Shown here one piece after another: positions 57,318-57,584 of a stretch of 64,000 nt of DNA. The notes beneath the pieces were generated by a model. The model worked only from the letters and a program-made list of their open reading frames with translations, had not been told where the DNA came from and ran no database searches. Where the stretch lies: assembly GCF_055900595.2 (NCBI RefSeq), contig NZ_CM148325.1; one strand, given 5' to 3'. The position numbers were made by a program, and so were the translations under genes. Numbering within the stretch: the stretch's first letter is position 1; the number at the start of each line of letters is the position of its first letter.

Positions 57318-57321
<4 letters not shown>

Positions 57322-57584
57322 AAGAGTTTTTATTTTTATTTCACTCCACGGTCGGCGTCATACATACCCGCAAGGCGTTGCAGGCAGCGGGCATGACTTT
57401 TCGCGTCAGCGATATTCCCCGTGATTTACGCGGCGGCTGCGGGTTATGCATTTGGCTGACCTGTCTGCCCGGCGAGGAAATACAATGGGTGATCCCTGGG
57501 CAGACCGAAGCGATATATTGCCAGCAGGGCAGCAACTGGCAGTGCGTGGTGCATTACGACTCAGAAGCGTCAACCAGGCAATAA
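57318..57584 (+). CDS. hypothetical cysteine-rich small protein (88 aa), translationally coupled to yjiL
   Basis: ATGA overlap with yjiL stop; MKEFLFLFHSTVGVIHTRKALQAAGMTFRVSDIPRDLRGGCGLCIWLTC... Confidence 0.45.

Follow-up and report, generated by a model that had tools for sequence, protein, structure and literature searches.

The open reading frame (ORF) at positions 57318-57584 on the plus strand of a 64,000-nucleotide (nt) stretch of Escherichia coli chromosome (contig NZ_CM148325.1, assembly GCF_055900595.2; the whole stretch is called the window below) was identified as ytiA, a real protein-coding gene under purifying selection, which is the last gene of yjiM-yjiL-ytiA and is coupled to yjiL. 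Its 88-amino-acid (aa) product belongs to PF11823 (Se_S_carrier, formerly DUF3343). Judged from residue conservation and gene neighborhoods, there is an even chance that YtiA acts as a relay in which Cys41, as persulfide or perselenide, serves YjiM, a double-cubane-cluster reductase homologue, and its ATPase YjiL. The features concerned are as follows.

55393..56544, plus strand: yjiM, operon gene 1, homologue of double-cubane-cluster ([8Fe-9S]) anaerobic reductases, class II, 383 aa
56554..57321, plus strand: yjiL, operon gene 2, ATP-dependent activase/reductase (BcrAD_BadFG family)
57318..57584, plus strand: ytiA, operon gene 3, 88-aa DUF3343 / Se_S_carrier protein
57318..57321, plus strand: ATGA start/stop overlap of the ytiA ATG with the yjiL TGA, a translational coupling signal
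57417..57449, plus strand: family signature P34-x6-C41-G42-x-C44, from the alignment of the family

Identity of the gene and its product

The product of ytiA, MKEFLFLFHSTVGVIHTRKALQAAGMTFRVSDIPRDLRGGCGLCIWLTCLPGEEIQWVIPGQTEAIYCQQGSNWQCVVHYDSEASTRQ, matched PF11823 with 46.7 bits (cut-off 25, E = 2.2e-12) over YtiA residues 4-59, corresponding to profile positions 2-57 of 69. PF11823 was the sole Pfam family matched by YtiA, all 35 sequences of the family alignment likewise matched it and no other family, and it is exactly the DUF3343-type family that an earlier sequence-only reading of this DNA had proposed to search for. With a mass of roughly 10 kDa, YtiA fits the description of DUF3343 proteins as small single domains (80-100 aa) with one highly conserved cysteine. 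The motif GGCGLCIWLTC, which the same reading had singled out, is present and contains Cys41, Cys44 and Cys49; further cysteines are at positions 68 and 76. None of the NCBIfam models matched YtiA, and searches of the PDB returned nothing meaningful, either with YtiA (top match LolB, per-domain E-value 2.9) or with a profile of the 35 sequences (matches at E of at least 0.65).

By megablast, positions 56900-57900 were found in 5385 of 5426 complete E. coli genomes, where the RefSeq annotation of the ORF reads "ytiA: DUF3343 domain-containing protein" or "putative Se/S carrier protein" (e.g., WP_000657672.1). The counterpart in MG1655 (ytiA, b4715, YP_009518833.1, 85 aa, 4563668-4563925) lies directly 3′ of yjiL. 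Because RefSeq annotates the gene in K-12 and in thousands of genomes, and Pfam holds an entry for the family, both were already known: the ORF is E. coli ytiA, an already named gene of a known Pfam family and not a new discovery. The searchable literature yielded no paper about ytiA of E. coli; the name matched the unrelated Bacillus subtilis ytiA/rpmEB (L31 paralogue).

The YtiA of the window was 82% identical to the MG1655 protein and 99% identical to that of strain RMDEC465. K-12 shares the locus (mdtM-yjiN-yjiM-yjiL-ytiA-...-yjiK) and the ATGA overlap, but its YtiA has 85 aa rather than 88 and diverges from the window allele from about codon 62 on. At the nucleotide level, homology to K-12 fell from ~97% to ~70% in the last ~25 ytiA codons (from ~57500) and was lost past the stop codon; an island boundary or recombination tract reaches into ytiA, which accounts for the two C-terminal alleles.

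Evidence for a coding gene

The length of the ytiA ORF alone is no proof of a gene, since other ORFs in the region, antisense and out of frame, are of similar size (55-103 aa). ytiA orthologues were taken from 36 species-level genomes and 2 metagenomic contigs, aligned by codon and analyzed by the pairwise Nei-Gojobori method. The median ratio of nonsynonymous to synonymous change (dN/dS) in frame was 0.22 (0.14 over codons 1-50, 0.41 from codon 51 on), whereas shifted-frame controls over the same columns gave 1.32 (+1) and 1.69 (+2). Median dN relative to the window was 0.32 for YtiA and 0.12 for YjiL, whose dN/dS was 0.05-0.15 where dS was estimable. The PF11823 match, the dN/dS contrast, conservation in 12 genera, in synteny and with the start/stop overlap kept, establish ytiA as the real gene that the sequence-only reading had taken it for.

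That the ORF is a chance or decaying frame from which no functional protein is made is thus very improbable. Such a view could appeal to a weak Shine-Dalgarno-like sequence 5′ of ytiA (GAGA), to the searchable literature, in which experimental evidence of translation was not found, and to occasional genomes with a frameshifted or deleted ytiA (a K-12 derivative, a Citrobacter isolate and an insertion sequence [IS]3-associated deletion). It is contradicted by the dN/dS values (0.22 in the ytiA frame, above 1.3 in both shifted ones), by a Pfam score well over the cut-off, by intact copies across the 12 genera and by a confident AlphaFold2 (AF2) model obtained from only 19 sequences.

The exceptional genomes are these. 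ytiA was frameshifted in the K-12 derivative PG20180170 (locus L001, 4419-4675; a pseudogene in RefSeq), MG1655 being intact, and in Citrobacter amalonaticus AUH_CA_2023_1 (L044); in both cases a homopolymer error of the long-read assembly may have mimicked a pseudogene. In E. coli CP131_Sichuan (NZ_CP053720.1), an IS3-family element adjoins a truncated yjiL, ytiA, yjiK and further genes are gone, and an extra DUF2164 gene lies between yjiN and yjiM. Because of this IS3-linked deletion, the 3′ end of the operon is dispensable in at least one isolate.

Conservation and coupling of yjiM-yjiL-ytiA

One genome per species (GTDB r220) was scanned by pattern; the scan reached Enterobacterales only and returned 37 loci from 12 genera: Escherichia, Citrobacter, Klebsiella, Raoultella, Cedecea, Kluyvera, Phytobacter, Atlantibacter, Kosakonia, Superficieibacter, Enterobacter and Hafnia. 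By tblastn, yjiM, yjiL and ytiA were contiguous in 36 of these 37 species-level loci, the remaining one being a 4-kb contig that starts inside yjiL, so that the ORF is conserved downstream of yjiL homologues, a point the earlier reading had put up for checking. Identity across the enterobacterial loci was 82%-97% for YjiM, 69%-95% for YjiL and 53%-85% for YtiA. The same trio was present in two metagenomic contigs, L006 (GC content 32%; YjiM 81% and YtiA 46% identical) and L045 (GC 39%; YjiM 73% and YtiA 39% identical).

In the window, the ytiA ATG (57318-57320) and the yjiL TGA (57319-57321), as read from the sequence, form an ATGA junction, confirming the overlap that the sequence-only reading had described. 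A 4-nt ATGA or GTGA overlap was likewise found in 34 of 40 loci, which bears out the coupling it had proposed; the other junctions were a 1-nt overlap (TAATG or TGATG; 4/40), an 11-nt overlap (1/40) and an 18-nt gap (1/40). Ribosomes finishing yjiL could re-initiate at ytiA, and because of the overlap YtiA would be expected to be produced together with the ATPase YjiL. A promoter and terminator scan gave nothing above the shuffled expectation, with no terminator either between yjiL and ytiA or just 3′ of ytiA.

Beyond the core enteric set, YtiA has its closest relative (P0133/P0450, 83 aa, ~45% identical) on two metagenomic contigs with a GC content of ~58% (L059, 1424-1809, and L005, 912-1297), which differ at 5 of 386 nt. 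Its neighbors are rluA-like, djlA, lptD, surA and pdxA genes. In place of yjiM-yjiL, a 48-codon ORF, MALIKDLPSIFYEAGVKYGIGIDSGSTMAKGALIGYRWLRRQETMCGR, lies 5′ of the gene and overlaps the DUF3343 start by 13 nt. It looks like the N-terminus of YjiM fused in frame with the N-terminus of YjiL, followed by a basic tail, and appears to be a deletion relic of yjiM-yjiL that left the small gene intact.

Cysteine conservation and predicted structure

In the alignment of 35 family sequences, with identity down to 24%, only Phe8, Pro34 and Cys41 were invariant, and Gly42 and Tyr67 were nearly so. For a wider sample, 173 family members of 70-100 aa were aligned to the hidden Markov model (HMM), and residues were counted in the 80 members that were less than 50% identical to the YtiA of the window. 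Pro34 and Cys41 were kept in 80/80 of these distant relatives, Gly42 and Phe8 in 78/80 each, Cys44 in 54/80 and Cys49 in 8/80; Cys68 and Cys76 were not conserved. Codon 41 (57438-57440, TGC) thus encodes the only family-invariant cysteine, and the family-wide signature is P-x6-C-G-x-[C/S/A]. The three-cysteine cluster is a trait of the enteric clade, the CxxC pair is common to two thirds of the family, and no conserved set of three or four cysteine ligands was present among the 80 distant relatives. Since only Cys41 is invariant, with Cys44 kept in part and Cys49 rarely, the pattern favors a single reactive thiol, rather than an Fe-S or multi-cysteine metal site, as the putative core function of the family.

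These counts bear on the earlier suggestion of a small redox or metal-handling partner: the clustered cysteines it cited are present, but a multi-cysteine metal or Fe-S set is not conserved, only Cys41 being so. As a small Fe-S or metal-binding partner, YtiA could form a dimer bridged through C41-x-x-C44 pairs, like Nfu-type carriers, and act as an electron donor to YjiL or as a source of clusters for YjiM. This seems unlikely, given that a third of the distant members lack Cys44 and 90% lack Cys49 while all have Cys41, that sequence and profile searches of Pfam, NCBIfam and the PDB revealed no similarity to Fe-S or metallochaperone families, and that family neighbors elsewhere mobilize sulfur or selenium rather than assemble Fe-S clusters.

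The AF2 model of YtiA, built from the 19-sequence alignment, had a mean predicted local distance difference test score (pLDDT) of 87.3 and a predicted template modeling score (pTM) of 0.78. The predicted topology is beta(2-8), alpha(11-24), beta(28-32), loop(33-42), beta(43-49), alpha(53-57), beta(63-70), beta(73-79), with the last four residues disordered. Cys41 is placed in the loop just ahead of strand 3, which belongs to the folded block of lowest confidence (pLDDT 82). The model suggests a small ferredoxin-like alpha/beta fold with Cys41 in an exposed loop.

On paper, YtiA resembles TusA/SirA-like and DsrE-like carriers, which are small alpha/beta proteins with one essential, persulfide-carrying cysteine. 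It differs from TusA/SirA-like proteins in that its cysteine lies in a P-x6-C-G loop before a strand, whereas theirs is in a CPxP motif at the N-terminus of a helix. Neither the TusA/SirA-like profile (PF01206) nor the CPxP motif was found in YtiA, for which the Pfam scan gave PF11823 only, and TusA-like structures were not among its top fold matches.

Sulfur and selenium context of DUF3343

DUF3343 was proposed to be a selenium/sulfur trafficking chaperone on the basis of neighbors such as YedF, selenocysteine (Sec) lyase and YedE (Lin et al., 2015; PMC5322559). YtiA shares with the family so described its size class of 80-100 aa and the single highly conserved cysteine. It differs in neighborhood: the sulfur and selenium genes behind the family name were not among the neighbors of ytiA in the window and in the enteric loci, which are yjiM and yjiL, for a double-cubane reductase and its ATPase. 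Such a neighborhood underlies the functional proposal for the family, whereas membership is decided by sequence. The STRING table given for Slackia in the same work lists a coenzyme A (CoA)-enzyme activase and HGD-type subunits among the partners of DUF3343 (PMC5322559).

Elsewhere in the family, sulfur- or selenium-related genes were found directly beside the DUF3343 gene. In Planctomycetota (P0174; L055/56), it shares 8 nt with the 3′ end of an Aminotran_5 cysteine-desulfurase-like gene; in Budvicia aquatica (P0147; L054), it overlaps a YedE-like Sulf_transp gene by 14 nt; in Coriobacteriia (P0159; L048/49), it lies behind a YedE-like gene and beside an Aminotran_5 gene and a LysR regulator; and in Bacillota (P0149; L047), it starts 2 nt 3′ of a TusA-DsrE fusion gene.

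Selenium has been connected with the double-cubane enzymes as well. Of 970 strong NF040772 proteins, 955 were in SelD-positive assemblies, and a selenium-bridged cluster was listed as a formal possibility, with no mention of DUF3343 (Haft and Gwadz, bioRxiv 10.1101/2022.07.06.499078).

The partners YjiM and YjiL

YjiM matched PF06050 (HGD-D; E = 3.8e-122) and the NCBIfam model NF040772, "double-cubane-cluster-containing anaerobic reductase", with 531.7 bits (cut-off 350). Against PDB entry 6ENO, the double-cubane cluster protein (DCCP) of Carboxydothermus hydrogenoformans, phmmer gave E = 2.3e-74, and all aligned cysteines were conserved (C40, C59, C78, C93, C108, C273, C302, C304 and C335). 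YjiM did not match a strict regular expression for the published spacing of seven cysteines, so its correspondence to that motif rests on the 6ENO alignment. YjiL matched PF01869 (E = 2.6e-76) and TIGR00241 (acyl-CoA dehydratase activase; 363.7 bits, cut-off 125.4). The two genes had earlier been read as an ATPase/dehydratase-like Fe-S pair; membership of the 2-hydroxyacyl-CoA dehydratase superfamily stands, and YjiM is better described as a double-cubane-cluster reductase, given its NF040772 score.

The DCCP and its ATPase are a two-component system that uses ATP hydrolysis to transfer an electron of low potential to the [8Fe-9S] cluster, and DCCP reduces acetylene and other small molecules in vitro (PMC7317905). 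The physiological substrate of the double-cubane enzymes is unknown (PMC7317905; bioRxiv 10.1101/2022.07.06.499078). YjiM is a shorter, "class II" DCCP, without the channel-closing N-terminal helices of class I (PMC7317905). YjiM and YjiL are clear homologues of the C. hydrogenoformans DCCP and its ATPase partner DCCP-R (6ENO, 7YYL; PMC7317905, PMC9351452), but two genes were described for that system, whereas in the enteric class II operon ytiA is added as a coupled third.

Class I operons of Carboxydothermus islandicus, Desulfosporosinus youngiae and Thermincola potens consisted of DCCP and ATPase genes only. Their DCCPs have 421-425 aa and are 35%-40% identical to YjiM, that of C. islandicus being 97% identical to the 6ENO protein. 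No PF11823 gene was found at these three loci with Pfam or the family HMM over six-frame ORFs. In this small sample of three class I operons, the third gene thus sets the short class II operon apart.

Alternatively, YtiA could be a subunit of YjiM/YjiL with a structural, regulatory or protective role and no part in sulfur or selenium transfer. It might work as a thiol-disulfide switch, for instance, or cover the active-site channel, which has been proposed to be more open in class II DCCPs. In favor of this, ytiA is strictly co-operonic with yjiL and coupled to it in translation, the only YjiM proteins it was found with were of the short class II type (383 aa), which lacks the channel-closing helices according to PMC7317905, and its evolution is relatively rapid, a common trait of accessory subunits. 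Such a role would, on the other hand, leave unexplained the coupling to desulfurase-like, YedE-like and TusA-DsrE genes where no DCCP is adjacent, and the one cysteine that is invariant in all those contexts; it is considered improbable.

Three further observations concern the flanks of these operons. The program-made ORF list starts yjiM at GTG 55372 (390 aa) and RefSeq at ATG 55393 (383 aa); a purine run, GGAAGGAAA, lies just 5′ of the latter, and the 383-aa form matches the NF040772 profile from profile position 1. No FNR-type box was found between yjiN and yjiM, and the number in the whole window was that expected by chance (44 found, 39.6 expected). In T. potens JR, a gene divergently upstream of the class I DCCP operon (L052, 4213-4761) had weak matches to 2-thiouracil desulfurase families; it could be another sulfur-related neighbor of a double-cubane enzyme, as a single case with weak Pfam support.

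Genomic surroundings of the operon

The window is ordinary E. coli chromosome, running from deoA/yjjI/prfC through the hsd/mrr immigration-control region to mdtM-yjiN-yjiM-yjiL-ytiA. Between ytiA and yjiK lies a gene for a 685-aa pentapeptide-repeat protein (57891-59948, plus strand), the O157:H7 equivalent of which RefSeq annotates as the type III secretion system effector EspX6. K-12 differs from the window in having no such espX6-like gene, and the arrangement downstream of ytiA was as in the window in 635 of 5426 E. coli genomes. The immigration-control region (38200-49300) contains symE and, besides type I hsdRMS, a further N-6 DNA methylase and restriction endonuclease, and is highly variable: only 1 of 5426 genomes covered at least 80% of this 11-kb stretch. 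The window lacks two elements of the related strain RMDEC465, a prophage beside yjjG and a group II intron near rsmC.

Proposed role of YtiA

If YtiA is a relay, Cys41 would carry sulfur or selenium as a persulfide or perselenide, and Cys44, part of C41-G-L-C44 in the enteric clade and present in two thirds of the family, could be the resolving thiol. Spending ATP, YjiL would charge the [8Fe-9S] cluster of YjiM with electrons of very low potential, and YtiA would hand its sulfur or selenium atom to YjiM or receive one from it. The likeliest task of YtiA would be to present a protein-bound sulfur or selenium species for reductive release or transfer.

Several points weigh against this relay. 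It rests on guilt by association and one conserved cysteine. A biochemical characterization was not found in the literature for any DUF3343 protein, nor was a solved structure for the family in sequence and profile searches of the PDB. The neighborhood of ytiA in the window contained no cysteine desulfurase, YedE or YedF. YtiA accumulated nonsynonymous change about 2.7 times faster than YjiL, and constraint is weak over its last ~25 codons (dN/dS 0.41). Because the three class I operons lack one, a DUF3343 protein is no general requirement of double-cubane enzymes. The loci were gathered from the DUF3343 side, so that ytiA-type genes are seen to follow yjiL while the converse is shown within E. 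coli only; a search started from YjiM returned only close enteric orthologues. The ytiA-like gene behind the yjiM-yjiL relic could reflect either a recent deletion or a function independent of YjiM and YjiL.

Two more specific versions of the relay were formulated and are together regarded as doubtful: YtiA may deliver the sulfur or selenium borne by Cys41 to YjiM as the bridging chalcogenide of the [8Fe-9S] cluster, or loaded YtiA may itself be the substrate of YjiM. The first, if true, would correspond to the selenium-bridged cluster variant listed by Haft and Gwadz, and the second would mean that a persulfide or perselenide on a protein is reduced to sulfide or selenide with ATP as the driving force; either would be the first physiological role for an E. 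coli double-cubane enzyme.

The value of ytiA lies in its context, in which a putative sulfur or selenium carrier is tied to a double-cubane enzyme, giving a hint at the substrate of YjiM/YjiL, the most tractable example of such enzymes being that of E. coli. On either of these versions, YtiA would link two independent signals, the association of DUF3343 with selenium genes and that of NF040772 with SelD, and as a sulfur or selenium carrier it may explain why the double-cubane family tracks SelD.
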